Below are positions 33,738 through 50,387 of a DNA stretch of 57,404 nucleotides, piece by piece. This stretch comes from Candidatus Angelobacter sp. (GTDB lineage: Bacteria; Acidobacteriota; Terriglobia; Terriglobales; Acidobacteriaceae), in contig DASTJB010000318.1 of the NCBI GenBank assembly GCA_035717005.1, forward strand, positions 1 through 57,404, read 5' to 3'. The first letter of the stretch is position 1, and each line of letters begins with the position of its first letter. Below the pieces are notes generated by a model. It saw only the letters and a program-made list of their open reading frames with translations. It was not told where the DNA came from and made no database searches. Position numbers and translations under genes: made by a program.

Positions 33738-35288
33738 ATGAAAGAATCAGAGCGCATTCTGCGAGTCAAGGAAGCGGTCGAGCGTGAGCTGCGGAAGATT
33801 CCAGGGGTACACGCCGTTGGCATCGGACCCAAGATTACGAATGGCCAGCTCACGGGTGAGATAGCGATTCACATTTTGCTTCCCAAGAAAAAGCCACTCG
33901 CACAAATCCCGCCGGAGCACGTTGTTCCAGCCGAAATCGAAGGCATCAAGACGGACATCCTGGAGATTCCAGGATTTGTTGCAAGCACCTTGCCAGACAC
34001 TTCCACCTATCGCCCGCTGAAAGGCGGCAGCCAAGTCAGGGCCGGTGGCGGGCTTGGATCAGGGACTCTGGCCTGCCTGGCCAGGACCACAGCCAATCCG
34101 ATTCAGGTGGTTGCGCTCTCAAACCATCATGTGTTGTTTTCCGGAACCGCGAAAGGCCCGAGCTGCTGGGGATGCACGTCTGGAAGCGACGTGGGCCAAC
34201 CGACCGTATCGGATGTGATTGGCACCAACCTCCGCGGCTTCGCCAACGAGCAAATCGATGCTGCCATCGCCGTGGTGAATGACGGCACCCAATATCTGGC
34301 GGAGATCCAGGATTTTGGATTGATTTCAAGCGTACGTTCCACTCCTATTACGCAGGATGAGCTGCTAAACATAGCTATGCAGCCGCCGCCGAATAATAAA
34401 TTTTGGGTCAACAAGCGGGGCAGGACCACAGGGCTGACACGGGGCTGGCTTGGCAGCGCGCAGCTTACCGGAGGGCCGGTGCACTGGCCCGATGGCTCGG
34501 TCCAGCGTGAGCACTACGTTAACCAGATTCTGATATTGCCTGAGGCCTTTACCGGAGCTCCAGCTCCACCGCCGGCAGGGAGCCATCCAGTTGTTCAGTC
34601 TGGCGATTCCGGTTCGCTCGTGCTCGATGACAGTCATCAGGCGGTAGCTCTGCTGTTCGGTGACGCTACCTCCGACAGCACAAGTCCTTTCTTTGGCTCG
34701 GCCATTGCCTGCCACATCAGCGACGTCCAGTCGCAGCTCGGGATAGCCATAGAAACGGCCACGGCACTGAACCAAATACGCACGGCAGCTACCGTGCACG
34801 CAGTGGCGCCCGCGAGTCCATCTCCAGCCCCGGCTCCCTCTCCTGCGCCTGTACATCCTGCGGCAGCAGTATTCGGTCCTCCTCCGGTTGTAGTCCAGGT
34901 GGAAAAGGAGATTCGTGAGATTCCCGAAGGCCGCGCTTATTTGGATCTTCTGCGAAAACATGCGCCGGAGATTCACTACCTGGTAAACCATAATCGCCGC
35001 GTAGCCACGGTCTGGCACCGCTGCGGTGGACCAAAAGTCCTGCAAAGCTGCCTGCGAATGCTGGAAGACCGGGCCCACGCCTTTCCGGTTGAAGTTGGGG
35101 GCATACCGCTCCAGGCCTGTATCGACCGCTTCATCAAGGTGTTGCAGCGGTATGGAAGCCGCGTGCTCGCTGCCGACATTGGAAGGTTCGGGCCTCGACT
35201 GGCCTGCTTTGCCGGAATGACGTATGCGCAGATCAAAGACTCTCTACACGCAGAGACTGCTCAATGGCTCGCAAGCACTGCGCGGTAG
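33738..35288 (+). CDS. Trypsin-fold (PA clan, S1-like) serine peptidase with an N-terminal ~60-aa domain shared with the PLD gene and a ~170-aa C-terminal extension
   Basis: Candidate catalytic triad in the canonical order: LSNHHVL (His), EQIDAAIAVV (Asp), QSGDSGSLVL (Ser). A Pro/Ala/Ser linker (APASPSPAPAPSPAP) precedes the unrecognised C-terminal domain. No signal peptide. Confidence 0.7.
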   Translation: MKESERILRVKEAVERELRKIPGVHAVGIGPKITNGQLTGEIAIHILLPKKKPLAQIPPEHVVPAEIEGIKTDILEIPGFVASTLPDTSTYRPLKGGSQVRAGGGLGSGTLACLARTTANPIQVVALSNHHVLFSGTAKGPSCWGCTSGSDVGQPTVSDVIGTNLRGFANEQIDAAIAVVNDGTQYLAEIQDFGLISSVRSTPITQDELLNIAMQPPPNNKFWVNKRGRTTGLTRGWLGSAQLTGGPVHWPDGSVQREHYVNQILILPEAFTGAPAPPPAGSHPVVQSGDSGSLVLDDSHQAVALLFGDATSDSTSPFFGSAIACHISDVQSQLGIAIETATALNQIRTAATVHAVAPASPSPAPAPSPAPVHPAAAVFGPPPVVVQVEKEIREIPEGRAYLDLLRKHAPEIHYLVNHNRRVATVWHRCGGPKVLQSCLRMLEDRAHAFPVEVGGIPLQACIDRFIKVLQRYGSRVLAADIGRFGPRLACFAGMTYAQIKDSLHAETAQWLASTAR

Positions 35289-35352
35289 AGAAAGCCAGCA
35301 CCGTTGTGTGCTGCCTGTTATGTGAATCGGTGGGGAGGAGTTTGAGGTAGCT

Positions 35353-38300
35353 ATGCCGGGACAATCTGGGACGCTCGAAACCATAGCCCGGCATATCGGC
35401 CTGGCGCTCCAGCCGCTCAAAGACAGGCTTACTTCTGACCATGCCATCGATCTTCTGGCGGAGCTGGGCCTTGAGTTCCCACCCCAACTCTTGCAGCCCG
35501 CTTTCGTCAACGCCTTGAAGGCGGGCGCGAACGCAGCTGGCGCGCTTCCCGGCACGATTACGCAGCTTACGAATGCAATCGACACCGACAATGAAGGACA
35601 GATCCTAAGCTCTGGGGCGCAGCTCATTGGGGAAATCGCAGCCGTTATCACCGCCGTGGGGCAGATCGGAACTGCACTAAAGAACCAGGCTGGCAGCCTG
35701 CCGGGAATGAACGCGTCGGAGGTATCCAACTTTGCCGATGCATTGCCAGGAAAATTGCTGGGTTACCTGGTAGTTTCTTACCTGGAATCGGTTGTGCCCG
35801 GGGTCGTAAGCATAGGCAACCTCCTTGGATTCCTGGATTACCTTCCCAACGCCGGCGTCGACGGAGATCCCGCGCATCCTGGCTTTATCGTGCGTGAACT
35901 GCAATTAGGAAATTTGGGAGATCTCCTTACGTCTCCTGACAAGTTGCTGAAGAAGCTGTACGGATGGGGTGATCCCGCCTTCGATGGCAAGACCCTCATC
36001 AGCAGATTGAGCACGTCTCTGGGACTTCTGGGAGTATCCTCACAGGTTTCGGCGACTGGGGATTCGTTGAACGTGTTCCTGTTGACTCTGGGAGTCGCGC
36101 CGGCAACGAATCCGCCTGGGCTGTCCGCCACCTTAGCCGCAACACTCCCATCGGGCCTGGACATCACTCTGCCTCTGAGCCAAACGTGGTCTGTCCATGT
36201 ACAGGCACAAGCAGCACTCGCTTCGGGTTTGAAAGCCACCATCACGCCACCGGCAAGTGTCACTCTAAAGCCTCCTTCGGGTACGGTGAATGGACAGTTG
36301 CAGGCAGACGTCGTCGCCAAGGGCGCGGATGCCTCTCATCCGATCATCATCATCGGACAGACCGGCGGCAGCCGGCTGCAGACCAATTCGTTCACCTTCG
36401 GCATGGGGGTGAAGATTACTTTTGATTCGGGTTCCGGCACGGCCACCGCCGAACCGACGATCCGAATTGAGATCAAAGGCGGCAAAGTCGTCATCGACAT
36501 GTCCAATGCCGACGGCTTCCTGGCAACGGTGCTCTCCGGAGTTCATGTCGAGGCCGGGTTCGACCTGACGATCACCTGGGCCCCCGATACCGGAATCCAC
36601 ATCCAGGGCGGCGCGCAGCTGGAAATCGATCTTCCACTGCATCTCACGCTCGGCCCAATCAGTTTGCCGACGTTATATCTGGTGGCCGGCGCGAACGATA
36701 GCGGGCTGCCGATTGAAATCTCTGCGGCGCTCGGCCTCACTCTGGGCCCGATCCAGGCCGCGGTTGATCGCGTCGGCGTCAAAGGGTTGATCACCTTTCC
36801 CGATCACGGGGGAAATCTTGGACCGGCCAATCTCGCCATCGACTTCAAACCACCGAGCGGGCTTGGCATTGCCATTGACGCGGGCGTGGTGGCCGGCGGC
36901 GGGTACATCTCATTCAATCCCGATAAGGGCCAGTATGCCGGCGTGCTCGATGTATCTCTGGCGGAGATCGTTCAGGTCAAGATCATCGGCGTGCTCGACA
37001 CCATTCTGCCCGACGGCTCTCACGGTTTCTCTTTCCTGCTGATCATCACTTTTGATTTTCCGCCCATCCAGCTGGGATTTGGCTTTACTCTGAACGGCGT
37101 TGGCGGGTTGGGCGGCGTGAACCGGACGATGAATACTGACGCGCTGCATGCCGGCTTCCGCGCGCATACGCTTAATTCCGTTCTATTCCCGCCGGACCCG
37201 ATCGCCAATGCGCCGCAGATCATCAGCAACATCGAAAACTTCTTCCCCCCCGCCGAAGGGCGCTATCTCTTCGGACCCATGCTGGAGATTGGCTGGGGCA
37301 CACCAACACTGATCACGCTGGCGGTGGGCGTGATCCTGGAAGTTCCGGACCCGGTGCGTCTGGCGCTGCTGGGACTGATTGATGCCGGCCTGCCGACCAC
37401 CGAACTGGCGCTCATCGAGCTGCACATTGATGTGCTGGGCATCCTCGATTTCGGCGCCAAAACGCTTTCCATCGACGGCTCACTCTACGACTCGCGTGTG
37501 CTGATCTTCTCTCTTGCCGGCGACCTGGCGCTGCGGCTCTCCTGGGGCGACAATCCAAATTTCATCTTCTCGCTTGGCGGGTTCAACCCGCACTTCAATA
37601 CCACCGGGCTCGATGTTCCCAAGATGCACCGGCTCTCGGTAAGCATCGGCGATGGCGACAATCCGCGCATCAGCGCCAACAGCTATTTCGCCATCACCTC
37701 GAATACTCTGCAGTTTGGCTCCAATGTTGAGGCTTATGCCTCCGCCGCAGGATTCACCATCCATGGGTGGCTCGGCTTTGACGTATTGATTATTTTTTCG
37801 CCATTCTCCTTCGAGTTCGACTTCTCCGCGGGATTTGATATCTCATTCGAAGGAGTGAGCCTGTGCGGCCTGAGAGTGGACGGCTTGTTCTCCGGCCCGC
37901 GGCCCTGGCACCTGCACGGCAGCGCCACGATCGATATTTTGTTCTTCAGTGTCAGCGCGTCGCTGGACCTCACCTGGGGTGACAGCACGCCGGCCATCCT
38001 GCCGAAGAAGCCCGTGCTGCCCGATCTGCTCCCGGCTTTGCAGGACCCACGCAACTGGAGCACCGCGCTGCCGAGTAATACTACGCAGGCGGTCACGCTT
38101 TCCACGCCCAAGCCGGATGATAAAACGCTGCGCGTCCATCCCATGGGCACGCTGAGCGTGCGTGAGAACATTGTTCCCCTGGACCTGCCGATTACGCGCT
38201 ACGGAAATGCAACGCCATCAGACGGAAATCTTTTCTCCATCAATGATGTGCAGATCGACGGCCAGGAAGAAACCAGGCAGAGCTTCCAGGATTATTTCGC

Positions 38301-38784
38301 CGCTGGGCAGTTCCTGAGCCTGAGTGACGCGGACAAGGTCAGCCGACCCAGCTTCGAAAAATATAACGCCGGAGTGCAGATCGGTTCCAATGCCATTCTA
38401 TCGGGCGCCGACTCGCCGCGGACGGTGTTCTACGAAGAGCGGTACATCGATGAGCCAAATGATTTTTCGCGCTTCGCCCGGCGCTATGGAATGCTGGCGG
38501 ACGTTCATCTCGCCCTCACCATGCAGGGCGCGGGATTTGCTTCGCCCCTGAAGAACAGCGGGCTGTTTAAATATGCAAAGGGCAACAGCGAGGCCGCCGT
38601 CACGACCCAGGACCCGGCTTACGTTGTGGCGCATGTGGAAGACCTTTCGGTGCGCAGCGATATCGTCTCCTCATCCGGCGGCACGTACTTCCACGCTCGC
38701 GCGGCGCTGGACTCCTACCTGGTCCTGCATCCCGAGGAGACCAACAACCTGCAGATTGTTCCCGTGCACGAGGTGACGCCATGA
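35353..38784 (+). CDS. Giant hypothetical protein A (1143 aa): helical N-terminus and a Gly-rich, beta-strand-like core and C-terminus
   Basis: Uninterrupted ORF with GGGGAGGAG upstream of the ATG. No signal peptide and no catalytic motif seen. It probably belongs to a family catalogued only as a domain of unknown function (from memory, unverified). Confidence 0.85.
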   Translation: MPGQSGTLETIARHIGLALQPLKDRLTSDHAIDLLAELGLEFPPQLLQPAFVNALKAGANAAGALPGTITQLTNAIDTDNEGQILSSGAQLIGEIAAVITAVGQIGTALKNQAGSLPGMNASEVSNFADALPGKLLGYLVVSYLESVVPGVVSIGNLLGFLDYLPNAGVDGDPAHPGFIVRELQLGNLGDLLTSPDKLLKKLYGWGDPAFDGKTLISRLSTSLGLLGVSSQVSATGDSLNVFLLTLGVAPATNPPGLSATLAATLPSGLDITLPLSQTWSVHVQAQAALASGLKATITPPASVTLKPPSGTVNGQLQADVVAKGADASHPIIIIGQTGGSRLQTNSFTFGMGVKITFDSGSGTATAEPTIRIEIKGGKVVIDMSNADGFLATVLSGVHVEAGFDLTITWAPDTGIHIQGGAQLEIDLPLHLTLGPISLPTLYLVAGANDSGLPIEISAALGLTLGPIQAAVDRVGVKGLITFPDHGGNLGPANLAIDFKPPSGLGIAIDAGVVAGGGYISFNPDKGQYAGVLDVSLAEIVQVKIIGVLDTILPDGSHGFSFLLIITFDFPPIQLGFGFTLNGVGGLGGVNRTMNTDALHAGFRAHTLNSVLFPPDPIANAPQIISNIENFFPPAEGRYLFGPMLEIGWGTPTLITLAVGVILEVPDPVRLALLGLIDAGLPTTELALIELHIDVLGILDFGAKTLSIDGSLYDSRVLIFSLAGDLALRLSWGDNPNFIFSLGGFNPHFNTTGLDVPKMHRLSVSIGDGDNPRISANSYFAITSNTLQFGSNVEAYASAAGFTIHGWLGFDVLIIFSPFSFEFDFSAGFDISFEGVSLCGLRVDGLFSGPRPWHLHGSATIDILFFSVSASLDLTWGDSTPAILPKKPVLPDLLPALQDPRNWSTALPSNTTQAVTLSTPKPDDKTLRVHPMGTLSVRENIVPLDLPITRYGNATPSDGNLFSINDVQIDGQEETRQSFQDYFAAGQFLSLSDADKVSRPSFEKYNAGVQIGSNAILSGADSPRTVFYEERYIDEPNDFSRFARRYGMLADVHLALTMQGAGFASPLKNSGLFKYAKGNSEAAVTTQDPAYVVAHVEDLSVRSDIVSSSGGTYFHARAALDSYLVLHPEETNNLQIVPVHEVTP

Positions 38785-41700
38785 GCGCTCCGCTGGGCCG
38801 CTATCATTTCCTGAGCTGGGCGCGCCGCGGCGTGGGCGCCAGCGTAGCCAACGTGGACAACGGTGGCGCTCTTCCCAGCCGCGCCGGCCTAAGCGTCCAG
38901 CTTTCCCTGCAGGTGAATGGCGCTCCCAGTCCCCAGCAGCCCACGCCCATGCCGGTGCAGATGTTCGGGCCGGGCGATGTGATCGGAATCGATCCGCGGC
39001 ACATCATCCGCACCGAGCCGCGAAATTTTACCGTCAATTTCGAGCCCAATTATCTGTGCGGGGTGGAGTTCGATACACCCGATCTACCGTGGCTGTTCAC
39101 GCCGGCGGCGCCCAAAGGCGATCAGCTTCGCCCGTGGCTGGCGTTGATCGCGCTGAAGCCGGACGAGCTCAAGCTGCCTAACATCGCACCGAATCCTCTT
39201 CCGGTGGTTGAAGTGCAGGCCATGAGCGCGCTGCAGGACCTTTCCGATTCGTGGAACTGGGTGCACGTGCAGGTCAGCGGAGATACGCCGCTCACCGATT
39301 CGATGACCAGCGCTCCGGGGAACGTGATCTCGCGGCTGTTGTGCCCGCGCAGGCTCGATCCGGAGACTCATTACAAGGTTTTTCTGGTTCCGGCATTCGA
39401 GATCGGGCGGCAGGCGGGGCTGGGGAAGGACGTCTCCGGAATTGCGACCGCCGATCCGGCGTGGACGAAAGCTACCGTCGCGCCGCTCACGCTTCCTTTC
39501 TATTACCAATTTGAATTCAATACGAGCGATGAAGGCGACTTTGAATCGCTGGTGCGGCGGCTGACTCCGCGCGTCCTGCCGGCGGAAGTAGGGCAGCGGC
39601 CGATGGACGTTTCGCAACCGGCCCCGCACATCGCCCCAGCAGGACCACCGCCTCTGGGACTTGAAGGCGCGTTGCACAGCGTGCTGACCAAGCCCACCGA
39701 CTGGAAAGATCCGGTCAAGACGAATTTTCAGACGGACGTGCAAACGTTCATCAATCATCCGCAGCTCTCGACGGATGATCCGGCGAATCCCAATCCTGAC
39801 GATCCGGTGATTGCGCCTCCGATTTACGGCCGGTGGCACGCCGCTGTCCAGAGCGTGGACCGCACCGCGGCGGGGTGGGTGAACGATTTGAATCTCGATC
39901 CGCGCAACCGCAGCGCCGCCGGCATGGGCACGCAGGTTGTCCAGGATGAGCGCACGCAACTGATGGCCTCCGCCTGGCAGCAGGTGGATGGCGTGCGCCA
40001 GGCCAACGAACTGCTTCGCCAGGCGCAGCTTGCCCGGGCGGCGTTGCAGCAGATCCATGTGCATGAATTGCAGCCCGCCACGGCGGAGACGTTGATGACC
40101 ATGACGGCGCCGCTGCACTCGCGGCTGATGGCCAGCCCGCGAACTGTGCTGGCGACTGTGAGAAGCAGCCGCGTACCGGAACGTCTGCTCTCCGGCGCCT
40201 ATCGCCGGGCGACGCGGCCGCGGCGCCGGGTCGGGCCTTCGCCCAAGACGCGAACTCCTTTGCTGGCCCGCGTAAACTCAGGCGAGGTCGCAATTGTGCC
40301 GCCCGCCAAACCTCCGGGCGGAATGGTCTCGATCGATCAGATCTCCGACAATTTCGCTCCGCCGTGGATCAAGACGCTGGCCAAGTACTGGAAGTGGATC
40401 CTGCTGGTGGTCCTGTTGCTGCTGGTGCTGGCAATCATCGTCGTAGGAGCGGTTGCCGGAGGGGCAGCAGCAGGCGCGGTAGTGGTGGCGGCGGTGGTCA
40501 TTGCAGCCGCAGTGTGGCCGGCGATCAAGAAATTGCTCGACAAGGCCCAGGCCGCCAATGAGCTGAGCCCGTCAGGCTTCACGCCGGCGGCGGTGGCAAA
40601 TGCTCCTCCGAACCCTAACTTCACGGTGACTACGCCAGGCACCGCGCCCTCGACGGGCGCCAGCGGCCCGGACTCAACGCAAGCCGTGGCCTTCCGTGCC
40701 GCCACCAGTGACGTGTTTACGGCGTTCCAGGCATTTCCGGCCGATCCGCCCCTGGCGCCTTCGCTCGAAATGGCAACGCTGAAGAGCACGGTGCTGATGC
40801 GGATCGATCCCGGGGTGACCGTGCCCAAGCGGGTGCAGTATCTGATCACCTTCTCGCCGAACTTCACCTGGCTGTTGCCGGACCTGCTGGAGCCGATCAT
40901 GGCAGCGCCGGAATTTCCGCAGCCAATGTACGCTCCGCTGCGCGATCTCTCGCCCGACTACGTGCTGCCCGGAGTCGAGCTGGTACCGCCGGACACGCTG
41001 GGACTTCTGCTCACCAACCATGAATTTATTGAAGGTTACATGGTCGGCCTGAACCACGAAATGGCGCGCCAGCTATTGTGGAATGATTATCCGACGGACC
41101 AGCGCGGCAGCTACTTCCGCCAGTTCTGGGACGTGAGCGCCTACGTTCCGCAAAAAGGCGATCCCAGCGATCCGGCGAAGCTGCGCGAATTGCTCAAGGA
41201 CATCCCTCCCGTTCACACTTGGCCCAAGCCGCTGCCGCTGGGCGAGCATCCCAACCGCACGGACATTGTCGAAAACAATGTTGTGCTCCTGGTGCGGGGC
41301 GAGCTGTTCAAGCGCTATCCGAACGCCATTGTTTACGCCGGCAAGGCCAAACGAGCGGTGGACGGCACGCGTGTGCTCGACGAAACCGACGAGCGCTATC
41401 CCATTTTCCGGGGCACGCTGCCCTCTGACATCACCTTCCTGGGTTTCAACCTGAGCCTGGACGATGCTCGCGGCGGGACTGCGCAATCGCCGGAGGGCTT
41501 CTTCTTCGTCTTCCAGCAGCAGCCGTCGGAGCCGCGCTTTGGACTGGAACCGAACGAAGATGCCACTCCGATCGCCCACTGGGCGGAGCTGGCCTGGACC
41601 AACTTCGGCGTGGCCGGTGGCGGAGACAAAGCGCGCCCCGCGGTCCTTCGCGCCGCCGATCCTGTTTTCCAGCTTCCCGACCTGGGAAAAACCACGCGGG

Positions 41701-41969
41701 GCAAGACGATCGCCAACAGCCCATGGCGGCTGGCTTCGCAGGTATTTTCCATCGTGCTCGCGAACGTGAAGCTCCCGGACTTTCTTTCCGCGAAGCTGAA
41801 TCCGGTGCGGGTGACCATTCCTCCGGGCGGAGGAAATCCCAACCTGCCGGACTACACTCCGGAAGACCCCAACAACAACTGGGGCGTGAACAGTGCGCAG
41901 ACGGCGTACATTCTTTTGCGCCTGCCGTTCCGCATTCTGATTCATGCCGACTTGATGCTGCCAAAATGA
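38781..41969 (+). CDS. Giant hypothetical protein B (1062 aa) with a central hydrophobic hairpin of about 46 aa
   Basis: ATGA overlap with gene A. The hydrophobic stretch WKWILLVVLLLLVLAIIVVGAVAGGAAAGAVVVAAVVIAAAVWPAI is encoded at 40389-40526. No signal peptide. Confidence 0.85.
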   Translation: MSAPLGRYHFLSWARRGVGASVANVDNGGALPSRAGLSVQLSLQVNGAPSPQQPTPMPVQMFGPGDVIGIDPRHIIRTEPRNFTVNFEPNYLCGVEFDTPDLPWLFTPAAPKGDQLRPWLALIALKPDELKLPNIAPNPLPVVEVQAMSALQDLSDSWNWVHVQVSGDTPLTDSMTSAPGNVISRLLCPRRLDPETHYKVFLVPAFEIGRQAGLGKDVSGIATADPAWTKATVAPLTLPFYYQFEFNTSDEGDFESLVRRLTPRVLPAEVGQRPMDVSQPAPHIAPAGPPPLGLEGALHSVLTKPTDWKDPVKTNFQTDVQTFINHPQLSTDDPANPNPDDPVIAPPIYGRWHAAVQSVDRTAAGWVNDLNLDPRNRSAAGMGTQVVQDERTQLMASAWQQVDGVRQANELLRQAQLARAALQQIHVHELQPATAETLMTMTAPLHSRLMASPRTVLATVRSSRVPERLLSGAYRRATRPRRRVGPSPKTRTPLLARVNSGEVAIVPPAKPPGGMVSIDQISDNFAPPWIKTLAKYWKWILLVVLLLLVLAIIVVGAVAGGAAAGAVVVAAVVIAAAVWPAIKKLLDKAQAANELSPSGFTPAAVANAPPNPNFTVTTPGTAPSTGASGPDSTQAVAFRAATSDVFTAFQAFPADPPLAPSLEMATLKSTVLMRIDPGVTVPKRVQYLITFSPNFTWLLPDLLEPIMAAPEFPQPMYAPLRDLSPDYVLPGVELVPPDTLGLLLTNHEFIEGYMVGLNHEMARQLLWNDYPTDQRGSYFRQFWDVSAYVPQKGDPSDPAKLRELLKDIPPVHTWPKPLPLGEHPNRTDIVENNVVLLVRGELFKRYPNAIVYAGKAKRAVDGTRVLDETDERYPIFRGTLPSDITFLGFNLSLDDARGGTAQSPEGFFFVFQQQPSEPRFGLEPNEDATPIAHWAELAWTNFGVAGGGDKARPAVLRAADPVFQLPDLGKTTRGKTIANSPWRLASQVFSIVLANVKLPDFLSAKLNPVRVTIPPGGGNPNLPDYTPEDPNNNWGVNSAQTAYILLRLPFRILIHADLMLPK

Positions 41970-44900
41970 GTACACATCCTCCCAATCCGAATCCGAACCA
42001 GCCTCCCGCTCCGGGTCCGAACCAGCCTCCCGCTCCGGCGCCCGGAGGGAACGGGCAGCCGCACGCTCTGGATGCAGCTACGCCCGTCCTGTTCCTTCCC
42101 GTCAACATCGAAACCCGCTTCATGGATGCCGGCGTGAGGGGAGGCTCGGAGCTCTGGCTGCGCGTCTATCCCGATCAGATTGCCATCAACTCACATGAGC
42201 CCGAGCTCACGGACCAGGAGATCGCCGACGGAAAAGTTTACTGGGACGCCGTGTGGCGGGCGGGCAAGCCCCCGGCCAGGGAGGAGGACGTGAAAGCGCC
42301 GTGGCGCGGTCTGGCTGCGCGGTACGGTGGGCCGCGCGCCGCGTGGATCGCACTGACCATGACGCCGACGAACGCGCTGCAGCAGCCCGCGGCGCCGACA
42401 GCGGAAGGCGCCAATCCGGTCCCTCCGCCGAGCTATCGCACGCCGCCGACACACTCAGGATCGTGGACCAAGCCGGCGATCGCGGCAGCGCTGCCCGATT
42501 TCTGGAAGGTGGCCGCAATCTCCGGGACGGCAGTTCTCACGGCGCAGGGCGGGCCGATCACGCCCGATCTCGCTGTGGGAATGACGCCCGGCGTGGCCTT
42601 CCCGGCCGGGTCGCCGGTCGATCCGGGCATGCAGTGGCTGGTGGATTTTGACGCCGCCGTGAAAGCAGGCATGGCATTGAAAATCCCATTGACGGCGCAA
42701 CAAAGGAACACCGGATTTGACCGCATCTTTGTTTATGGATTGCGTTCCCGGGGCGCGTCCGGCAGCCAGACGCTGACCGAACTTTTGAATGCGCACCACT
42801 ACACCGACGGCTTTTCACTGGTGGCGCAAGGCGCTCCCACCAACAACACTCCGGACGCCGACGCCGCGTATTCGCGCAAGGACCCGGACCAGGAGGCCAG
42901 TTATAAGGTTGAGCGCAGCGATCCGCTGAATCAGGATGCGGCCGCAGACGGCAATGCTTTTGCCAATTTGATCGGCATTGATCCGGCCACCATGGCCCAC
43001 GTCGGCGAATCCGACGGCACGGATGAGCGCAATGGCCGTGACATGTTCACCGCGCTCTGGCCGGCGACTCTGGGATATTTCTTTTCGCAGATGATGGCTG
43101 ACGTCTTCACGCCGGCGCAGATCGAAACAGCGCGGCAATACGTGCTGGCCAATGCGCTGCCGCGCGGGCCGTTGCCGGCCTTCCGCGTGGGACGCACGCC
43201 CTACGGCGTCCTTCCCATCACCTCACTGCGGCGTTATCCCCAGGGAGAAAGAACTTTTGTCGGATCGATCGAGCCGGCGCTGGTAGATTTCATCTCAAAG
43301 CTGTGGCCGACCTGGCTGGCCAGCGCCAATGGGGCGCCGCACATGCAGAACTCGGGCGATCCTGACGCGCAGCTGGTGCAGGTGCTGGGCATGGACGCCA
43401 GCTCGATGACCTTCCGCGGGCGCCAGGTCCTTGGCGATGACTTCCTCTGGAATTACATCAATTTCCAGGGCATCGCGAGTTCGCTGGCGAATCCCTGGTG
43501 GCTGAGCCATCTGGCGCGCGGACGGCAACTGCTGGACAAGTTCGGCTTCAACACCTGGGACCCGCGCGTGATCCATCTGGGCCTGGCGGAGAAGTCGTAT
43601 CCCGTGCCATTTCCCACGGTGCAGACAGGCGCGCTCTCTGAAACGGACCCGCTGAAAGCCGACGCTGACCTGGGCGGCGGCACGAAGGGAAATTACATTC
43701 GGTGGCTGCGGCAGGCGGCGGTGAGCGACATCCAGGCGGACAACTATCCCGGGCCCAAACCCACGGCGCTGCTGTATAAGATCCTGCGCCAGTCCGTCCT
43801 GCTCGATTATGCGAAGCTGGCCACGTTCGCCGAAGTAAACGCAGCTCGGCTGCAGTTTGCACAGGTGCGCGAGCAGGAGATCATCGGCGTGGTGCCGCAA
43901 CTCGAAACCCAGGCTGCGGCCCAGGACCTTCCGAAGGTCAGCGTGTGGGAGGTGCTGGCGCGTCCTTCGATACCGAATCCGAAGCTCAGTTGGGCTGAGT
44001 ACCTGGTGAACCTCGATCCTCCGCCGCAATCTCCTTTTGCCCAGCTGACGGAGCTGCGAGCGTGTCTTGACCGGCTGGCGAAGCTCTCCACCGCGGAGCT
44101 GGACCGGCTGCTGACCGAGACTCTGGATGCGTGCAGCCATCGCCTGGACGTATGGGCCACAGCGATTGCAACCGCGCTGCTTGGCCGCACGCGCGCTGGA
44201 AAAAATAACGGAGTGCATCTTGGCGCCTTTGGATGGGTGGAAGAGGTGCGCCCCGCGGCTTCGCGTCCCGCAGTAGTGGGCGTGGAGCTGGACGCGGTGC
44301 GCGCTCTGGACCGCCGCCGTTCAACCACGCTGAAGCGCGAATTGAACCTGCCCGTACCAGTGCAGCCGCTTCAGGACAACGGCGGCTACATCTTTGCGCC
44401 GTCACTGACCCAGGCCGCGACAGCCGCTGTGCTTAGGAATGGCTACATGACCCACAAGGGCACCAGCCAGGAAGGGCTGCTCTCAATCGATCTCTCTTCC
44501 GAGCGCGTCCGCAACGCGCTGCTTCTGCTGGAAGGCGTGCAGCAGGGCCAGAGCCTGAACGCTTTGCTGGGCTACCTCTTCGAATCGGGACTGCATACGC
44601 TGCAGCTGGACAAGTACGCGCAACCTTTCCGCGACCGTTTTCCCATTGTCGCCAACAAGCTCACGCCGTCGAGCGATCCGAGCGAGTCGGTGGCCGCTTC
44701 AAACGTGGTGGATGGGCTGGCCCTGCGCACGGCATGGGACACCGGCCAGCTTGCTCAGGGCGGGAACTGGGGCACGGGATTGCCCGCTCCCGGCGCGGAC
44801 CAGAACGCCGTGATCGGGCTGCTCGAGACGATCGACGATTATGCCGACGCGCTGGCCGATCTCTCCATCTCCGAAGCGGTCTTCCAGATCATTCGGGGAA

Positions 44901-46498
44901 ACTTCGGCCGCGCCGGCACGCTGATGGATGCGATCTCCAAAGGAGTGCGCCCTCCCGATCCGGATGTGGTGAACACGCCGCGCGGAGGACTGGACCTTAC
45001 GCATCGGGTGGCGCTGCTCTGCGCCGGAGATCCGGCTGTGAATGCGGTATGGAGTGGAGTGACGGCGCATCCTCGCGCCGCGGCCGAGCCGTGGCTGGAC
45101 GCCTGGGTGAGCCAGCTTCTTCCCGATCCCGCAACCGTGATCTGCAATGTGACGTTTGACGATGCCGGCGGCAACCCCAACACGCAGCAGGTCACGCTGG
45201 CCGATCTGGACGTGGGCCCGCTGGATGTGATTGCCATGGCGGACGTAGGGCAAAGCGCGCAGCAAGGCGAACTGGAAAGACGGATCGCGTTTGCCGCCGC
45301 TCTGCCGGCCGGCGCCAGCAACCTCAAGATCGATTTCCAGGCGCCAGCCGGCTCGGTAAGCTTCCCGGATGTTTTCTTCCTGGCCAAATCGCTGCGGAGC
45401 CTGATCAGCTCGGCGCGCGCGCTCACGCCGCAGGACCTGACCCGCCCTGAAGTCAAAGCGGCCGATGCCGGAGGCGCAGTGAAGATCGCGGATCTTCACG
45501 ATCGCGCGGACAATGCCGTCAAGAGTCTGAAGAACGATTTGAAGAATTTAAACACCGCTGTGGCCGGACTGCCGGGCGCTCCAGGTCCGGTGCGCACAGC
45601 CCTGCTGGCGTGCAGCTCTTACGGGGTGGCCGGCTCGATACCTCTTTCGAGCAGCGGCGCCGATCCGGGGCTTGCCGACCAGGCCGCGGGTGTTACCAAG
45701 CAATTGCAGGAGCGAGTGGACACCGCTTCAAAGATCAACCTGGCAACTGCTCTGGCCAAGGCGGATGTTCCGGCGTTAACCGGAGTGCTGACCACCATAT
45801 TCGGCGATGACTTTGTTGTTCTGCCGCGCTTCACGCCGCCGGACTTCACGAAGCTGAAGGCGGCATTCGGCCAGTCCGACAATCTGGTTGCTGCGGACCC
45901 GGAGGCCCCTTCGCGGTGGCTGCTGCAACTGGCGCACGTGCGGCCGGGAATCTCGCGGCTTGATGCGGCGCTTTCTCTGGCAGAGCTTCTGGGAGCGCAG
46001 GACGTTGCGCCTCCCGATCTGCTGCTGGGACAATTGCCTGAGGTCGACAACGACAAGTGGCTGGGGCTGGGCATCGACACCTCCAAGCCTCCCGACAAAG
46101 GCCGCGTGGCCTTCGCTTGCGTGACGCAGGGCGATCCGGTCAATGACAACAGCTATGCCGGCCTGCTGATCGATGAATGGCCGGAACGAATTCCTTCAAC
46201 CCAGGAAAACGCCGCCGTGGCTTTCCACTATGAGGAGCCGAAGGCACGAGCGCCGCAGGCGCTGCTGCTGGCCGTCTGCCCCGACAACCGCGAGACGTGG
46301 GACGATGACCTGGTCACCGGCGTGCTTCAGGAGGCGCTGGAGCTGGCCAAAATACGCACGGTGGACCTGGACAGCGTGCAGGAGGCCGGCCAGATTCTGC
46401 CTGCTCTTTATTTTGCTCTGAACTTGCAGGGCGCCACCGTCTCCACACATTTCGCCAATTTCAAGGAGTTTAAGCGTGCAGCTCCAGTCATTCGCTAA
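41966..46498 (+). CDS. Giant hypothetical protein C (1510 aa) with a Pro-rich repetitive N-terminus
   Basis: The ATG at 41966 overlaps the gene B stop (ATGA). The N-terminus is MSTHPPNPNPNQPPAPGPNQPPAPAPGG. No recognisable enzymatic motif. Confidence 0.85.
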   Translation: MSTHPPNPNPNQPPAPGPNQPPAPAPGGNGQPHALDAATPVLFLPVNIETRFMDAGVRGGSELWLRVYPDQIAINSHEPELTDQEIADGKVYWDAVWRAGKPPAREEDVKAPWRGLAARYGGPRAAWIALTMTPTNALQQPAAPTAEGANPVPPPSYRTPPTHSGSWTKPAIAAALPDFWKVAAISGTAVLTAQGGPITPDLAVGMTPGVAFPAGSPVDPGMQWLVDFDAAVKAGMALKIPLTAQQRNTGFDRIFVYGLRSRGASGSQTLTELLNAHHYTDGFSLVAQGAPTNNTPDADAAYSRKDPDQEASYKVERSDPLNQDAAADGNAFANLIGIDPATMAHVGESDGTDERNGRDMFTALWPATLGYFFSQMMADVFTPAQIETARQYVLANALPRGPLPAFRVGRTPYGVLPITSLRRYPQGERTFVGSIEPALVDFISKLWPTWLASANGAPHMQNSGDPDAQLVQVLGMDASSMTFRGRQVLGDDFLWNYINFQGIASSLANPWWLSHLARGRQLLDKFGFNTWDPRVIHLGLAEKSYPVPFPTVQTGALSETDPLKADADLGGGTKGNYIRWLRQAAVSDIQADNYPGPKPTALLYKILRQSVLLDYAKLATFAEVNAARLQFAQVREQEIIGVVPQLETQAAAQDLPKVSVWEVLARPSIPNPKLSWAEYLVNLDPPPQSPFAQLTELRACLDRLAKLSTAELDRLLTETLDACSHRLDVWATAIATALLGRTRAGKNNGVHLGAFGWVEEVRPAASRPAVVGVELDAVRALDRRRSTTLKRELNLPVPVQPLQDNGGYIFAPSLTQAATAAVLRNGYMTHKGTSQEGLLSIDLSSERVRNALLLLEGVQQGQSLNALLGYLFESGLHTLQLDKYAQPFRDRFPIVANKLTPSSDPSESVAASNVVDGLALRTAWDTGQLAQGGNWGTGLPAPGADQNAVIGLLETIDDYADALADLSISEAVFQIIRGNFGRAGTLMDAISKGVRPPDPDVVNTPRGGLDLTHRVALLCAGDPAVNAVWSGVTAHPRAAAEPWLDAWVSQLLPDPATVICNVTFDDAGGNPNTQQVTLADLDVGPLDVIAMADVGQSAQQGELERRIAFAAALPAGASNLKIDFQAPAGSVSFPDVFFLAKSLRSLISSARALTPQDLTRPEVKAADAGGAVKIADLHDRADNAVKSLKNDLKNLNTAVAGLPGAPGPVRTALLACSSYGVAGSIPLSSSGADPGLADQAAGVTKQLQERVDTASKINLATALAKADVPALTGVLTTIFGDDFVVLPRFTPPDFTKLKAAFGQSDNLVAADPEAPSRWLLQLAHVRPGISRLDAALSLAELLGAQDVAPPDLLLGQLPEVDNDKWLGLGIDTSKPPDKGRVAFACVTQGDPVNDNSYAGLLIDEWPERIPSTQENAAVAFHYEEPKARAPQALLLAVCPDNRETWDDDLVTGVLQEALELAKIRTVDLDSVQEAGQILPALYFALNLQGATVSTHFANFKEFKRAAPVIR

Positions 46499-48248
46499 AT
46501 CCGTTATCAAGATACCGTCCATCACAACGTGGACACGGCTGGAGCCGCGTCCGCGCGAGGGCTCAATGCAACGCAGCCTGCAAGCTCAGGTGCGCGATGC
46601 GGCCTGGTTTCTGGCACGGCAATGGCAGATGGCGGAATTCCTGGGTGATGATGCCGGCTCTCCGATACAGGCCACGCTGGGCGTGGAGCAGCGCAGCATT
46701 ACCACCTACCGTCCCGGAGCAGACGACACGAAAACTGTGGCGCTCGAGAGCAAACTTCCCGTCGAGACGCATGTGGAGCGCGAAACGGTGCGCCTGAATA
46801 TGCGGGGCTCCGTACAGTCCGGGTTGTATTTTGAAAAGCTCGTCCGGCAGAAGCTGGGCGGAGGCGCGAACGCGGTGATGGCAAAATTTCGCGCAGCGTT
46901 TAAGATTGCCAGCAACTCGCCAGACCCGACATATGCCGATAGCGACTGCCTGCGCTTCCGCTCTGTGGCCGCGGGCCGCGTTACCGACGGTGAAGCACTG
47001 CTCCAGACTCTGAACGCGATTGCCGCGGGCCAGCCGCCGGCCATTCCGCTGCCGCCGGAAGCCGCCAATCCGGGAATGCCTGCCGTGCTCTCCGACTTTG
47101 CGGCGTTTCGCAATTCCCTGTTCACGGAACCCGATCATGATCCGGCATGGCAACCGCAGCGCCTGGACTACGACTTCGCGCTCGGCTCTCCGGTGCCCGA
47201 GGAAAACCTGTTGCTCAACGCGCCGGACTTTCCCGGCGGACATCTGGACTGGTATTCCTTCAATCTGCAGACGGCCCAGCCGAACCAGGTTTCCGCTGCG
47301 AATCCGGCGCAGATCACGCCGGAATCCTTCAACTTCCTTCCCAACCACGTGGTCTTCAACGGAATGCCGGACCCGCGCTGGTGGAATTTTGAAGACAGCG
47401 TGACCGACTTCGGCCAGCTCGACGCCGATCACGTAGACCTGGCCAAGCTGCTGGTGATGGAGTTCGCGCTGGTCTACGGCAATGACTGGTTCTGGGTGCC
47501 GGTGCCAACGCCGGTGGGAACACTGGAGCGCGTAACCACTCTGCTGGTGACTGACACTTTCGGAGTGAGGACGCTGATCCGTCCTTCCGAGCAGACGCAG
47601 GTCAATGCCGGGGAAACGCCGTGGTCAATGTTCAAACTTTCCGGCAATGGCCGCCGCTCGGATTTCATCGCCATGGCGCCCACGCTGGGAGTGACGGACG
47701 ACGCGGGCGCGCTGGAGGAAGTTCTATTCCTCCGCGATGACCTCGCTGCCATGGCCTGGGCGGTGGAGCATCAGCTGCAAAGCGATCTTGACGGCCCGGT
47801 GGACTCTTACGAGCAGTACCTGAAACGGATCAAGGCTGATCCGCCGCCGGCTCCGCCGCAGGCACAGCCGGGCGGGCCGAATATCTACTACACGCTGGAA
47901 ACGGTGGTGCCGGACAACTGGATTCCGATGGTGCCGGTGAAATCGCCGCAGGATGAGCTGTTTCTACGGCGCGGGACGATGGAGATCGCGGTTGCCGGTC
48001 CGCCGCCGCATTTTGTCAATCTGAAGGCGCATGCGCTGATTCTGGAGCCGGACCATCCGTTCTTTGTGGCTGACCGCATAGTCTCGCGGTCTGGCGTGAT
48101 GGTGGACCGCTACTTCCGGCGCACGCGCTCGTCGGACGGCAGCACCTTCGTCTGGATGGCGCGCAAATCAGGCGTGGGGCGCGGGCCAGGCTGGTCAGGC
48201 CTGCGTTATGACATTGTGCGCGATATGGCAAAAGCGAAAACCGCGTAA
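46476..48248 (+). CDS. Large hypothetical protein D (590 aa)
   Basis: GTG start at 46476 with AAGGAG 7 nt upstream. Overlaps the end of gene C by 23 nt. No motif recognised. Confidence 0.8.
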   Translation: MQLQSFAKSVIKIPSITTWTRLEPRPREGSMQRSLQAQVRDAAWFLARQWQMAEFLGDDAGSPIQATLGVEQRSITTYRPGADDTKTVALESKLPVETHVERETVRLNMRGSVQSGLYFEKLVRQKLGGGANAVMAKFRAAFKIASNSPDPTYADSDCLRFRSVAAGRVTDGEALLQTLNAIAAGQPPAIPLPPEAANPGMPAVLSDFAAFRNSLFTEPDHDPAWQPQRLDYDFALGSPVPEENLLLNAPDFPGGHLDWYSFNLQTAQPNQVSAANPAQITPESFNFLPNHVVFNGMPDPRWWNFEDSVTDFGQLDADHVDLAKLLVMEFALVYGNDWFWVPVPTPVGTLERVTTLLVTDTFGVRTLIRPSEQTQVNAGETPWSMFKLSGNGRRSDFIAMAPTLGVTDDAGALEEVLFLRDDLAAMAWAVEHQLQSDLDGPVDSYEQYLKRIKADPPPAPPQAQPGGPNIYYTLETVVPDNWIPMVPVKSPQDELFLRRGTMEIAVAGPPPHFVNLKAHALILEPDHPFFVADRIVSRSGVMVDRYFRRTRSSDGSTFVWMARKSGVGRGPGWSGLRYDIVRDMAKAKTA

Positions 48249-48306: not shown

Positions 48307-48558
48307 ATGAAGCGCCGAGTGCAGATTGTTGTTTCTTCCGGGCCTGCCGGAGGACATCAGGGCATCGCGCCACGCTTGAGCGTTTGGCAGCGATTCAAGC
48401 TGCTGATTATCGGGACTGTGCTGGCTGCAGGGGTGGTTGCCCTTCTGATTGTTGCAATCGTAGTCGGATCGATTGTAGCGACCTTCATTCTTCTCGCGAT
48501 GGCAGTGGCGGTTGTGGTTTTTGTCGTCAGGGCAAAGCTGCGGCGGTGGCGTCGTTAA
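48307..48558 (+). CDS. Small membrane protein E (83 aa, predicted TM hairpin, Arg-rich C-terminus)
   Basis: Hydrophobic stretch FKLLIIGTVLAAGVVALLIVAIVVGSIVATFILLAMAVAVVVFVV. The start is uncertain (ATG at 48307 or 48208) and there is no clear SD. Confidence 0.45.
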   Translation: MKRRVQIVVSSGPAGGHQGIAPRLSVWQRFKLLIIGTVLAAGVVALLIVAIVVGSIVATFILLAMAVAVVVFVVRAKLRRWRR

Positions 48559-48620
48559 GTCACTGTGTGGCATTCCAGACATTTCAGGCCGCCGCCGCTA
48601 CCGAACTTATGGCATCGAAC

Positions 48621-50387
48621 TCATCTTCGCCCAACAGCATGCGCCTTTACTTTGGGCTTCGCCGGTCCCTTTTTCTTACTGTGAGGAGTCGATCCGCCAG
48701 CGGGCTTTACCTTGAGCGCCGGTGCGTTCGGATCGAAAGGCTTGGCCCTGGTCTTCAAATCAGCAAGAAAGACCTTCTCGAAATACTGGGCTATCGGTGC
48801 AGATTCGATAATGACTCCGGCGTCGCGGTTGGTCTGCACCCCTGCGGGCGAAAAGTTCTGGCTGCTCACCACCACCGTGCTGGAATCCACAACGAAGCCT
48901 TTATTGTGAACATCCGGTTGGAGGAAAATATTCGCGGTGAGGTCCACTCCCTGGGACTTCATCTTCTCGGCCCATTTTTCGCCAAATTGCTGGCTTTCGA
49001 TCAGACGCACCTCCACGCCTGCCGCCACTCGTTCACGAATTGCCCGCAGCAATTTGTCGAAATCGTCGCCTGTCCCGCTTGACGCTTCGATGTACTGCAG
49101 CTGGATGTAGAGTTTGTGTTTGGCTCCGTTGATGAGGCTGATGATATTCGTCAGGTACTGCCCATTTTTTTGCGGCCCCACGGTATCCGGAGTCAACAGC
49201 GGCGTGATCTTCACTTGCACGTTAGGGAACACCTGCGCGGGCACGAGCTTCCCGCCTTTCGCCGCGGCCACAGCGGCCGGCGCGGGGTTTGCCTCGGCTG
49301 CCGCTTTGGCATGGGCGTCAGCGACGGCGCTGGCCAGGGCAGCAGGCGGTGCAGCCTGGTGCTGGCTGGCGGACTTGAAGTCCTGATCCAGATACGCGGT
49401 GAACACCTTGCTCAACTGCGCGTCTTCGATAATCACGTGCCAGTCGCGATCCTCTGTGGCCGGCGGGTGGGCGAGGTCGGGCTGGTTGCTGTTGTTCAGG
49501 TTCCCGCTTGAGATCCACACAGCCGAGCCGTCGCGCACGATGACCTTGATGTGATAAGAGGTTGTAAACATGATGGCGTCAGCGAAAACGTCATCACCCG
49601 CCAGCGCACGCACGATCCTGGCGCGGCCGCCCATGGCTGCCTCCAACTCCTGCACGGTCTGTGTGTCTGTCTGGTTACGGGTGTGATTGGGCGGAGGATT
49701 GTCCAAGACCATCTGCAGCGTTTTGCCGCCGGTGAGAACAGACTCGAAGATGCCCAGGATAGGCCCGGAGGTGAAGTCGTACATGCCGATCACCAGTGTG
49801 TGCTGGGTGCCCTGAAGGAATTGGGTGAGCGTCTTAAGGGCGGCATCCGGACTCACGTGCGCCGTGATCGTAGCCGTCGTGGTGAACGGCGTGAGCGGAG
49901 TATTGGGCGCGGCGACATATGGAATCTGGTTCTTGGCGGAGTGGGCCTGCAACGCCTGGGTCAGCATGGGCCGCTGTTGCCGGGTCGTGGCCAGCTGCTG
50001 CTGGGTGGAGCTTTGCGGGTCGTTCAATAGATGGCCACTCGGCATTTCCCTCTCCAGCGGCCAAACCGGCTCCTTCTGTTCCGGACGTCCGAAGGCCAGA
50101 GAAAGCGCCGCGGCGGCGGCATCGTGGGCCCGCAGACGCTGATGCGCCGTGCCCTCGCGGACATCTACCGGGATATTGTTGATCATGGCCGGAAGAAGTT
50201 CATTCCTAGGCAGGCTCTTTGTCTTGAGGTTAACCGTCGCCACAATAGCCTGCTTCCCGGTGAGCTGATGCTTGCGGATCTCAAAACCGGGACGTACGGT
50301 CAAGACGCCTGGTTTGCGCAGGCGTTTCAGATTTCTTGTTATAACCTTGTCAATGTGCTCTGGCGTGATGACTCTCTTGCTTGCCAT
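48621..50387 (-). CDS. Phospholipase-D-superfamily protein with two HKD motifs and an N-terminal domain homologous to that of the protease at 33738
   Basis: HKD 1: SYHIKVIVRDGSAVWISSGNLNNSN. HKD 2: DVHNKGFVVDSSTVVVSSQNFSPAG. No signal peptide. Convergent with the giant-gene operon. Confidence 0.85.
   Translation of the reverse strand: MASKRVITPEHIDKVITRNLKRLRKPGVLTVRPGFEIRKHQLTGKQAIVATVNLKTKSLPRNELLPAMINNIPVDVREGTAHQRLRAHDAAAAALSLAFGRPEQKEPVWPLEREMPSGHLLNDPQSSTQQQLATTRQQRPMLTQALQAHSAKNQIPYVAAPNTPLTPFTTTATITAHVSPDAALKTLTQFLQGTQHTLVIGMYDFTSGPILGIFESVLTGGKTLQMVLDNPPPNHTRNQTDTQTVQELEAAMGGRARIVRALAGDDVFADAIMFTTSYHIKVIVRDGSAVWISSGNLNNSNQPDLAHPPATEDRDWHVIIEDAQLSKVFTAYLDQDFKSASQHQAAPPAALASAVADAHAKAAAEANPAPAAVAAAKGGKLVPAQVFPNVQVKITPLLTPDTVGPQKNGQYLTNIISLINGAKHKLYIQLQYIEASSGTGDDFDKLLRAIRERVAAGVEVRLIESQQFGEKWAEKMKSQGVDLTANIFLQPDVHNKGFVVDSSTVVVSSQNFSPAGVQTNRDAGVIIESAPIAQYFEKVFLADLKTRAKPFDPNAPALKVKPAGGSTPHSKKKGPAKPKVKAHAVGRR

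Follow-up and report, generated by a model that had tools for sequence, protein, structure and literature searches.

The stretch of DNA analysed here covers positions 1 to 57,404 of contig DASTJB010000318.1 from the acidobacterium Candidatus Angelobacter sp., and this whole piece of 57,404 nucleotides is called the window below. Its main subject is a run of six co-directional open reading frames (ORFs), which encode a serine protease, four very large proteins (A, B, C and D) and a small protein (E), with a convergent gene for a PLD-family enzyme at their end (Table 1). A preliminary description of this sequence had regarded A-D as a conserved module of unknown function, and had supposed that the protease and the PLD, as flanking enzymes, belong to a membrane-anchored machine for effector delivery, toxicity or defence. 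All the ORFs were found again at the same positions in the ORF list and translations of the window, and the two ATGA overlaps and the 23-nt overlap with its AAGGAG and GTG were likewise reproduced from the sequence. The A-D module is real, widespread and apparently undescribed, and the conservation of its gene order together with an interchangeable enzyme gene upstream suggests an undescribed machine that delivers or displays enzymes extracellularly. The conserved module, the protease as a partner and the idea of an effector machine all survived the closer analysis, while the association with the PLD did not.

Table 1. Features of the A-D operon and its borders, in window positions.
Feature	Position	Strand	Remarks
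Candidate sigma-70-like promoter	33516..33543	+	TTGACT-16-TATTGT, 5' of the protease gene; weak, consensus match only
NAL1-like serine protease gene	33738..35288	+	516 aa, leaderless; occupies the variable enzyme ("cargo") slot
Protein A	35353..38784	+	DUF6603 (Pfam PF20248), 1143 aa
A/B overlap	38781..38784	+	ATGA stop/start, read in the sequence
Protein B	38781..41969	+	1062 aa; most conserved subunit
Hydrophobic hairpin of B	40374..40538	+	aa 532-586; two helices of transmembrane length, Lys/Arg on both flanks
B/C overlap	41966..41969	+	ATGA stop/start, read in the sequence
Protein C	41966..46498	+	1510 aa; variable N-terminal extension, conserved motif and body
C/D overlap	46476..46498	+	23 nt; AAGGAG 7 nt before the GTG start of D
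Protein D	46476..48248	+	590 aa, GTG start; proposed peripheral target-binding subunit
Protein E	48307..48558	+	83 aa from Met34; hairpin of two transmembrane segments, basic C-terminus
Convergent PLD	48621..50387	-	Two-HKD enzyme with PLDc_2 domains

The starts of two genes need a comment. The frame of C opens already at 41723, and its start was placed at the ATGA because orthologues and independent JGI gene calls show the identical 4-nt overlap. For E, the preliminary description had taken a start at 48208, which is probably over-extended. Judged from E-like orthologues in related loci, Met34 is most likely the initiator, and E therefore does not overlap D. The tight coupling of the core genes, from which co-translation had been supposed, is conserved in other loci (see below): among 54 loci, A and B overlap by 4 nt or 1 nt in 40, C and D overlap or lie within 20 nt of each other in 49, and all three core junctions are overlaps or gaps of 20 nt or less in at least 74%. 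Between the protease and A there is a gap of 64 nt (35289-35352), which contains a 6-bp GC-rich hairpin at 35296-35313 (CAGCACCGTTGTGTGCTG) without a clear T-tract. This hairpin could be an attenuator or a processing site that sets the ratio of enzyme to core expression.

Are such long ORFs real genes? The reference for this question was the closest orthologous locus (L004), which comes from a metagenome-assembled genome of Acidobacteriaceae and shows 79-88% amino-acid identity. The ratio of nonsynonymous to synonymous substitution rates (dN/dS) against it is lowest for A (0.059) and D (0.060), followed by B (0.086) and the protease (0.096), and it reaches 0.102 for C. Because of these values of 0.06-0.10, and because the gene order is kept across phyla, all five genes are real and under strong purifying selection. 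In the protein collection, more than 3,115 homologues of B were found, the best 120 of them at 60-93% identity. None of the more than 3,115 is functionally annotated, and almost all are without a source name or called "hypothetical protein". A degenerate-pattern scan with one genome per species found B encoded in at least 473 genomes, and the best-scoring 80 loci of this set, in which ORF starts are first-start calls, were compared with the window. When the seven window proteins were searched by tblastn, A-B-C-D appeared co-directionally and in unchanged order in each of the 80 loci, as far as the contigs reach. The co-occurrence of the four genes across phyla, which the preliminary description had only supposed, is borne out. 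The sequence blocks singled out there also turned out to be conserved motifs in the family consensus lines. Clustering of the ORFs flanking the module across the 80 loci gave only four broadly recurring families, A, B/C, D and the protease; the apparent joint B/C family was discarded as an artefact of fused ORF calls.

Named hosts of the 80 loci belong to Acidobacteriota, Polyangia, Alpha-, Beta- and Gammaproteobacteria, Gemmatimonadota, Actinomycetota, Eremiobacterota, Bacteroidota, Ignavibacteria, Chlorobium, Chloroflexota, Cyanobacteria, Verrucomicrobiota and Planctomycetota, and to the archaeon Nitrosotalea. With the haloarchaeal megaplasmids, the module is spread over at least 12 bacterial phyla and two archaeal lineages. 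Obligate autotrophs are among the carriers (Nitrosomonas, Nitrosotalea, Chlorobium and picocyanobacteria), and complete megaplasmids with the module are found in four haloarchaea, several Streptomyces, Rhizobium, Gemmatirosa, Nocardia and Paraburkholderia. RefSeq annotation shows the four-gene order in Salinigranum and Streptomyces, and in Halalkalicoccus A-B-C-D runs to the edge of the fetched stretch. One Streptomyces copy is flanked by tyrosine recombinases. The GC content of the core tracks that of the host (0.38 to 0.73), and it is 1-6 points above the own flanks in nine of nine genomes (the window and L012, L023, L031, L036, L046, L064, L076 and L082), which may simply come from a composition rich in Gly, Ala and Pro. 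The identity of about 60% between phyla, the carriage on plasmids, the recombinases and the host-like GC content together indicate that the module is old, repeatedly transferred and then well ameliorated. The preliminary description had judged from the native base composition that the operon is not a recent insertion; the composition is indeed ameliorated to the host, but the module itself is horizontally mobile. A phage origin is not supported, the sole "phage" match being an UNVERIFIED high-GC contig from a faecal virome, and a scan of IMG/VR, made with subfamily-specific patterns, was negative. Two loci show unusual arrangements. In a Pyrinomonadaceae locus (L039, 821-2629 plus an upstream fragment), a complete additional D gene and the end of an additional C gene lie just upstream of protease-A-B-C-D, and therefore two modules are in tandem there. 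On plasmid p_3 of Rhizobium lusitanum (L085, 7948-20541), B and C are each covered by two successive, overlapping gene annotations, which is either a split-gene variant or decay, and a gene with a CVNH lectin domain lies nearby.

What, then, occupies the position of the protease gene in other genomes? The gene directly 5' of A on the same strand was recorded in 65 loci. In 39 of them it is a NAL1-like protease, in one to four tandem copies, so the protease next to A is a true and frequent partner, as had been thought. The same slot holds a tyrosinase, an M14 carboxypeptidase, an M64-like peptidase or a PLD of a family other than that of the window PLD (three loci each), or proteins of no assigned kind (seven loci), and in the remaining seven there is no same-strand gene directly upstream. 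The haloarchaeon Salinigranum has a PhoD-like phosphatase in the slot. These enzymes are of kinds that are normally secreted. In a hydropathy scan, no N-terminal hydrophobic region was found in 56 of the proteases, three tyrosinases, three M14 enzymes, three PLDs and four M64-like peptidases. The type of enzyme swaps independently of the clade of the core; for example, tyrosinases go with acidobacterial-type, actinobacterial-type and distant-type cores. A second cargo slot, downstream of D, was rejected because the genes 3' of D differ from locus to locus (a TPR protein, amylase, rhamnosidase, UvrA-like protein, P450, GH94 and others). Directly 3' of D in a locus of Pyrinomonadaceae (L078, 20645-21742) lies a trypsin-like peptidase fused to TIR, an architecture of the defence type.

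The protease of the window consists of an N-terminal domain (aa ~4-80) like the small ATP-binding domain (ABD) of NAL1, a catalytic domain, a Pro/Ala linker and a conserved C-terminal domain (aa ~371-509). A family profile built from 25 members matches chains of rice NARROW LEAF 1 with E values of 1.8e-16 to 5e-15 over profile positions 29-345, and this match covers the small ATP-binding domain and the chymotrypsin-fold protease domain. The protease also matches PHROG 20754 "protease" (E 6e-26). Its GDSGS, in which G289 and S291 are invariant, is located at aa 289-293, and a His ("NxHVL") and an Asp ("DxAIA") are conserved in the consensus, so that a catalytic triad can be putatively assigned by position. 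By its profile similarity and its GDSG-type serine motif, the enzyme belongs to the NAL1-like S1 family. Rice NAL1 has been described as a hexameric cage that binds ATP (PMC12012508).

Protein A is a full-length member of DUF6603 (439 bits, the cutoff being 27; E 2.6e-131; profile positions 1-501 of 502), and its orthologues are named "DUF6603 domain-containing protein" in RefSeq. Its AlphaFold2 (AF2) model, with a predicted local distance difference test (pLDDT) score of 66.7, contains a helical bundle at aa 7-225 with scores in the 80s and a beta body with scores of 70-85; the C-terminal 250 residues lie outside the modelled part. The beta body (aa ~230-880) is predicted to be a series of about 45 antiparallel strands, each 10-20 residues long, with turns of 2-5 residues between them. 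The alternation of hydrophobic and polar residues in the strands scores 3.25 against 1.40 in shuffles (z = 9.1), and no repeats were found inside the beta body. A Foldseek search with the model gave only weak matches, with TM-scores of 0.1-0.15, to LptD, the ushers PapC and FimD, the beta-belt of ApoB100 and vitellogenin, and against BFVD weak matches of low TM-score to beta-rich proteins such as tail fibres. Matches of the N-terminus to PDB sequences were dismissed as generic designed coiled coils.

Protein B was modelled with a pLDDT of 57; the model has a beta domain at the N-terminus, then a helical hairpin, and at the C-terminus an alpha/beta half, which is highly conserved. Judging from hydropathy, the hairpin is the only transmembrane element in A-D. 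Of 37 diverse orthologues, 34 have it at this position, that of the archaeon Nitrosotalea among them. Two haloarchaea show an acidic soluble insert in its place, and in one Streptomyces plasmid copy it is deleted. Because Lys/Arg residues lie on both flanks of the hairpin and its loop is short and uncharged, an N-in/C-in topology is predicted for B. Foldseek with the B model gave nothing at E < 0.1, and against PDB only noise of immunoglobulin (Ig)-like and CopC-like proteins (E > 0.1); a profile of diverse B proteins had no match among PDB sequences. The sequence GKTTRGKT in B resembles a Walker A motif and was rejected as a chance occurrence, since it sits in an unconserved stretch. Among B homologues, an Ig-like insertion of the He_PIG/SprB type is found near aa 292, and in S. 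longwoodensis the protein under a match to the N-terminal part of B is called a VCBS-repeat protein, by annotation only.

Protein C begins with an N-terminal extension, Pro-rich in the window and coiled-coil in Bacteroidota, followed by the conserved motif "LLxPVRxETRF...ELWVRVYPDDI" and a long conserved body. Neither Pfam (on 26 diverse C proteins) nor a profile search against PDB sequences gave a match. Haloarchaeal orthologues of C reach 2,322-3,124 aa and are annotated "BGTF surface domain". The D family falls into 3,921 clusters at 50% identity (E <= 1e-3), and D itself is without Pfam or PDB-sequence match. About 100 aa of C (864-963) are homologous to D 111-215 (hhalign probability 89%, E 2e-6), and apart from this segment paralogy among A-D was rejected. 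Homologues of D carry a variety of additional domains, namely PA14 plus discoidin, IPT/TIG (three clusters), a C-terminal collagen triple helix (three clusters), WD40, a PKD insertion in a loop hotspot around position 470, and in haloarchaea a lamin-tail domain (LTD). The collagen triple helix implies trimers and a fibre that points outward. All the domains that particular lineages have added to the core are of the extracellular or adhesion type. On a contig of 2.5 kb with 2.9x coverage (L087, 77-2227, protein P0327), a D homologue appears in a putative fusion to a C-terminal Hcp domain of the type VI secretion system (T6SS) (E 4e-21).

Proteins resembling E, with the conserved N-terminus "NRR-QI-ISSRPP", were found 3' of D in eight loci of the acidobacterial type only, and E is taken to be a lineage-specific accessory gene. 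Hydropathy places its transmembrane segment at aa 62-112 of the long form. Such an architecture is holin-like, which is only suggestive with respect to a route of exit from the cell.

Does the module belong to any known system? B, C and D gave no match in Pfam, NCBIfam, PADLOC, PHROGs or PDB sequences, and for A the only match is DUF6603. With the absence of a real homologue in Foldseek searches with the A and B models, A-D remain as uncharacterised as the preliminary description had thought. A literature search for DUF6603, PF20248 and "BGTF surface domain", limited to the papers and preprints searchable in full text, retrieved nothing relevant. Regular expressions and hidden Markov models (HMMs) agree that A-D contain no Walker A, DEAD, HExxH or HKD motif, the chance GKTTRGKT of B aside, and a hydropathy heuristic finds no signal peptide or N-terminal hydrophobic region in A-D; both statements had been made by eye before. 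The check for membership in a known defence system, which had been suggested, was negative, as PADLOC-DB v2 had no match for the protease, A, B, C, D or E; the window PLD matches DrmC-type PADLOC models weakly. The Tc domains VRP1, TcA_TcB_BD, neuraminidase-like, RHS and SpvB had no Pfam match in A-D or in the 26 diverse C proteins, and no Tc chains appeared in the Foldseek searches with the A and B models. No sheath, Hcp/gp19 tube, gp25-like baseplate or VgrG/spike was seen in the operon or among its annotated neighbours in the window, and contractile injection components are missing from the recurrent gene families of the 80 loci. An encapsulin shell of HK97 fold or one of BMC domains finds no Pfam or PDB match in A-D, either.

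Some neighbouring features should be mentioned. Promoter-like sites in the region, including the candidate in Table 1, are not more numerous than expected from shuffled sequences. Divergently from the operon runs a gene for a Crp/FNR-family regulator (32692-33390, -), followed by genes for an ScdA-like protein (hemerythrin; 31858-32598, -) and NnrS (30530-31858, -), which together form a nitrosative-stress set. This arrangement is not kept beside A-D in other loci, and a regulatory tie between the regulator and the operon is local at most. Farther away, an ORF of 906 aa without Pfam match (23317-26037, +) is overlapped by long antisense ORFs, and the lowest GC content of the window is found at 25000-28000 (0.53-0.54 against ~0.60 elsewhere). 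The stretch around them may be a separate acquired or non-coding segment.

How could such a module work? Our favoured explanation, which we put forward tentatively, is that A-D form a new membrane-tethered complex without an ATPase, which packages leaderless enzymes and delivers or displays them outside the cell. According to this delivery-or-display model, A-D would assemble into one large complex without a nucleoside triphosphatase (NTPase), and the hairpin of B would tether it to the (cytoplasmic) membrane in most lineages. The complex would associate with the enzyme encoded upstream and bring it to a target outside the producer cytoplasm, where D and exposed loops of B and C might bind the target surface, and the amphipathic beta-sheet of A, the hairpin of B or both could engage a membrane to deliver or present the enzyme. 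The model is preferred because it makes use of the invariant core without NTPase, the slot for leaderless enzymes, the hairpin of B, the sheet of A and the adhesin-type decorations altogether. It also draws on the low Cys content of A-D and on membrane barrels and the lipid-wrapping belt of ApoB being the sole structural neighbours of A. The presence of the module in obligate autotrophs favours a role in conflict and disfavours nutrient scavenging. A bolder version is doubtful: it would make the module a class of ATPase-independent delivery or toxin nanomachines of Bacteria and Archaea, in which the DUF6603 subunit serves as a pore or a membrane wrap and interchangeable leaderless enzymes are sent to target cells via the adhesin-decorated subunits. 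The membrane-tethered complex of four subunits would then rank with Tc toxins or extracellular contractile injection systems as a secretion or injection family of its own. We infer the single A-D complex, the enzyme as its cargo, its action outside the cell, the exit route (lysis, vesicles or self-export) and the target (a competitor, a grazer or other).

Several points weigh against the delivery-or-display model. There is neither an energy source nor a recognisable export route. No targeting domain or terminal domain common to the families of slot enzymes was found by BLAST or HMM, seven of the 65 loci are without a same-strand gene directly 5' of A, and no immunity genes were seen. The predicted topology of B would leave both its halves in the cytoplasm of the producer, and 3 of the 37 orthologues do without the hairpin, so that a membrane tether is not essential. 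Passage through a pore would be hard for NAL1-like proteases, which are probably large oligomers. Finally, the models of A and B are of moderate and low confidence (pLDDT 67 and 57).

These difficulties make other explanations worth weighing. One of them is an anti-phage or abortive-infection system, in which A-D act as a membrane-associated sensor or scaffold that unleashes the adjacent enzyme on the host or the phage upon infection. The patchy spread and horizontal mobility of the module, with megaplasmids and adjoining recombinases, would suit such a system, proteases and PLDs are frequent among defence effectors, a trypsin-TIR gene adjoins the module at locus L078, and one D homologue has a weak insertion like a Death domain (23.5 bits, below the Pfam cutoff). 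Yet A-D and the protease are without PADLOC match and contain no NTPase, nuclease or other domain typical for sensors; the core is conserved very highly (60% identity across phyla, dN/dS 0.06-0.10), unlike proteins in an arms race; tyrosinase, M14 carboxypeptidase, M64 peptidase and PhoD phosphatase are atypical as defence effectors; the fusions to adhesion domains are hard to square with an intracellular sensor; and the sampled flanks consist of housekeeping genes, not of defence islands. We therefore consider a defence system unlikely. We judge it improbable, too, that A-D are a scaffold for nutrient acquisition, which exports leaderless hydrolases and oxidases and holds them on the cell surface. 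The set of enzymes does parallel the classic exoenzymes of soil for nitrogen, phosphorus and phenolics, D carries carbohydrate-binding and adhesion domains, and many of the hosts are heterotrophs of soil. However, the module with a protease in its slot occurs in the obligate autotrophs Nitrosomonas oligotropha, Chlorobium and Prochlorococcaceae, an energy-coupling component is missing, hosts with diderm, monoderm and archaeal envelopes alike have it without envelope-specific parts, and the topology of B predicts cytoplasmic halves.

Could the upstream enzymes be maturation factors instead of cargo? Tyrosinase is able to cross-link proteins, and proteases mature many assemblies. A-D might then be a structural assembly such as an envelope, a coat or a fibre-like layer, whose parts are cleaved, trimmed or cross-linked by the enzymes. 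Very large, Cys-poor (0.1-0.5% in A-D), highly conserved and stoichiometrically coupled proteins would fit such an assembly, and collagen and Ig-like additions are typical for surface layers and fibres. The enzymes of the slot, however, are not interchangeable as maturation factors and yet share the same slot, up to four proteases in tandem resemble diversified effectors, seven of 65 loci have no same-strand gene upstream, and a surface layer would be without signal peptides, so that this explanation looks quite unlikely. Very unlikely, in our opinion, is an intracellular compartment for sequestration or a complex for membrane or lipid remodelling, in which A is a lipid-binding beta-belt and B provides a hairpin for a monolayer or for curvature, for example to coat lipid particles or vesicles loaded with enzyme. 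The match of A with the best Foldseek probability (0.98) is the lipid-wrapping belt of ApoB100, a hairpin without a charged loop is typical for monolayer and curvature proteins, and export signals are absent. On the other side are TM-scores of only 0.1-0.15 on a model of moderate quality, three lineages in which the hairpin is dispensable, and adhesion-domain fusions that point outside the cell. There remains the supposition of the preliminary description that the protease and the convergent PLD bracket the machine as its two effectors. The convergent gene does encode a two-HKD enzyme of the PLD superfamily, as had been stated, with HIKVIVRD at aa 279, HNKGFVVD at aa 494 (both HxKxxxxD motifs) and PLDc_2 matched in two stretches (E 7e-26). 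Its N-terminus (aa ~10-80) has the NAL1-ABD-like domain of the protease (BLASTP E 2e-4, HMM E 3.6e-5), unrelated PLDs sit in the upstream slot at three loci, and a PLD-like gene lies near one Streptomyces cluster. But the ABD-like domain is a general module, found also in plant NAL1, and its presence in both enzymes makes it one that is common to unrelated hydrolase classes in this genome. The family of the window PLD is beside A-D in none of the 80 loci, including the closest relative at 88% identity. Orthologues of this PLD (64-68% identical) were examined in five contexts; none has DUF6603 nearby, and three share a neighbourhood of glycerol kinase, MIP and M20 peptidase, two with a GMC oxidoreductase, which is likewise present on the right flank of the window. 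Because the PLD is missing at the 80 loci and has its own neighbourhood, and because the genes downstream of D are unrelated between loci, the bracketing is coincidental; as an account of the machine it is largely refuted and hardly to be believed any more.

What does the module mean for future work? About 4,300 residues of invariant protein are known only by one DUF label. If the delivery-or-display model is true, a new family would join the few systems for protein translocation and toxins, and this family would work regardless of the type of envelope. It would also account for how enzymes of the secreted type reach their targets without signal peptides, and its modular enzyme slot and adhesin-decorated subunits would attract use in engineering. 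Even if the mechanism is wrong, the strict synteny, the conservation and the lack of a structural relative make A-D a defined target for cryo-electron microscopy and genetics, and several of its hosts can be grown in culture, namely Tunturiibacter lichenicola, Nitrosomonas oligotropha, Flavobacterium tyrosinilyticum, Dyella nitratireducens, Trebonia kvetii, Streptomyces spp., Rhizobium lusitanum and Salinigranum marinum.

Lastly, A-D should be set beside the systems that they resemble. A is a full-length member of DUF6603, a family whose function is not described, and the partners B-C-D and the enzyme slot are in no description that we found. The window protease has in common with plant NAL1, the cage-forming serine protease, the profile match over the ABD and the chymotrypsin fold and a retained GDSGS, whereas it is prokaryotic, has an extra conserved C-terminal domain of ~140 aa past the Pro/Ala linker and is encoded by the first gene of the A-D operon. 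With LptD, PapC/FimD, SprA and ApoB100, A shares a very long, antiparallel and amphipathic meander with tight turns. Since its TM-scores against LptD, the ushers and ApoB100 are 0.1-0.15 at an identity of 8-9%, this likeness to barrels and belts is architectural only. Unlike the giant beta-barrels, A is without a signal peptide, and it occurs also in monoderms and archaea, whose cells lack an outer membrane. Tc toxin complexes and extracellular contractile injection systems (eCIS) are, by analogy, the nearest functional counterparts of A-D, while membership in either is excluded as their defining domains are absent. Compared with eCIS and T6SS, sheath, tube, baseplate, spike and AAA+ genes are absent from the operon and the window, and the module has only four core genes, all giant; they are alike in leaderless components, variable effectors beside a conserved core, presence in Bacteria and Archaea, and fibre-like adhesion modules, to which the D-Hcp fusion on a single 2.5-kb contig of low coverage adds a likeness to T6SS. 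Against Tc (ABC) toxins, A-D show no sequence or structural similarity and no RHS/YD repeats, their payload of 40-90 kDa would be the product of a separate upstream gene instead of a C-terminal hypervariable region, they occur also in Archaea, and B has a transmembrane hairpin. What both have in common, as a functional analogy, is a small number of giant proteins without ATPase or signal peptides, a conserved scaffold with an exchangeable enzyme, variable decorations of Ig-like or receptor-binding kind, and horizontal mobility.

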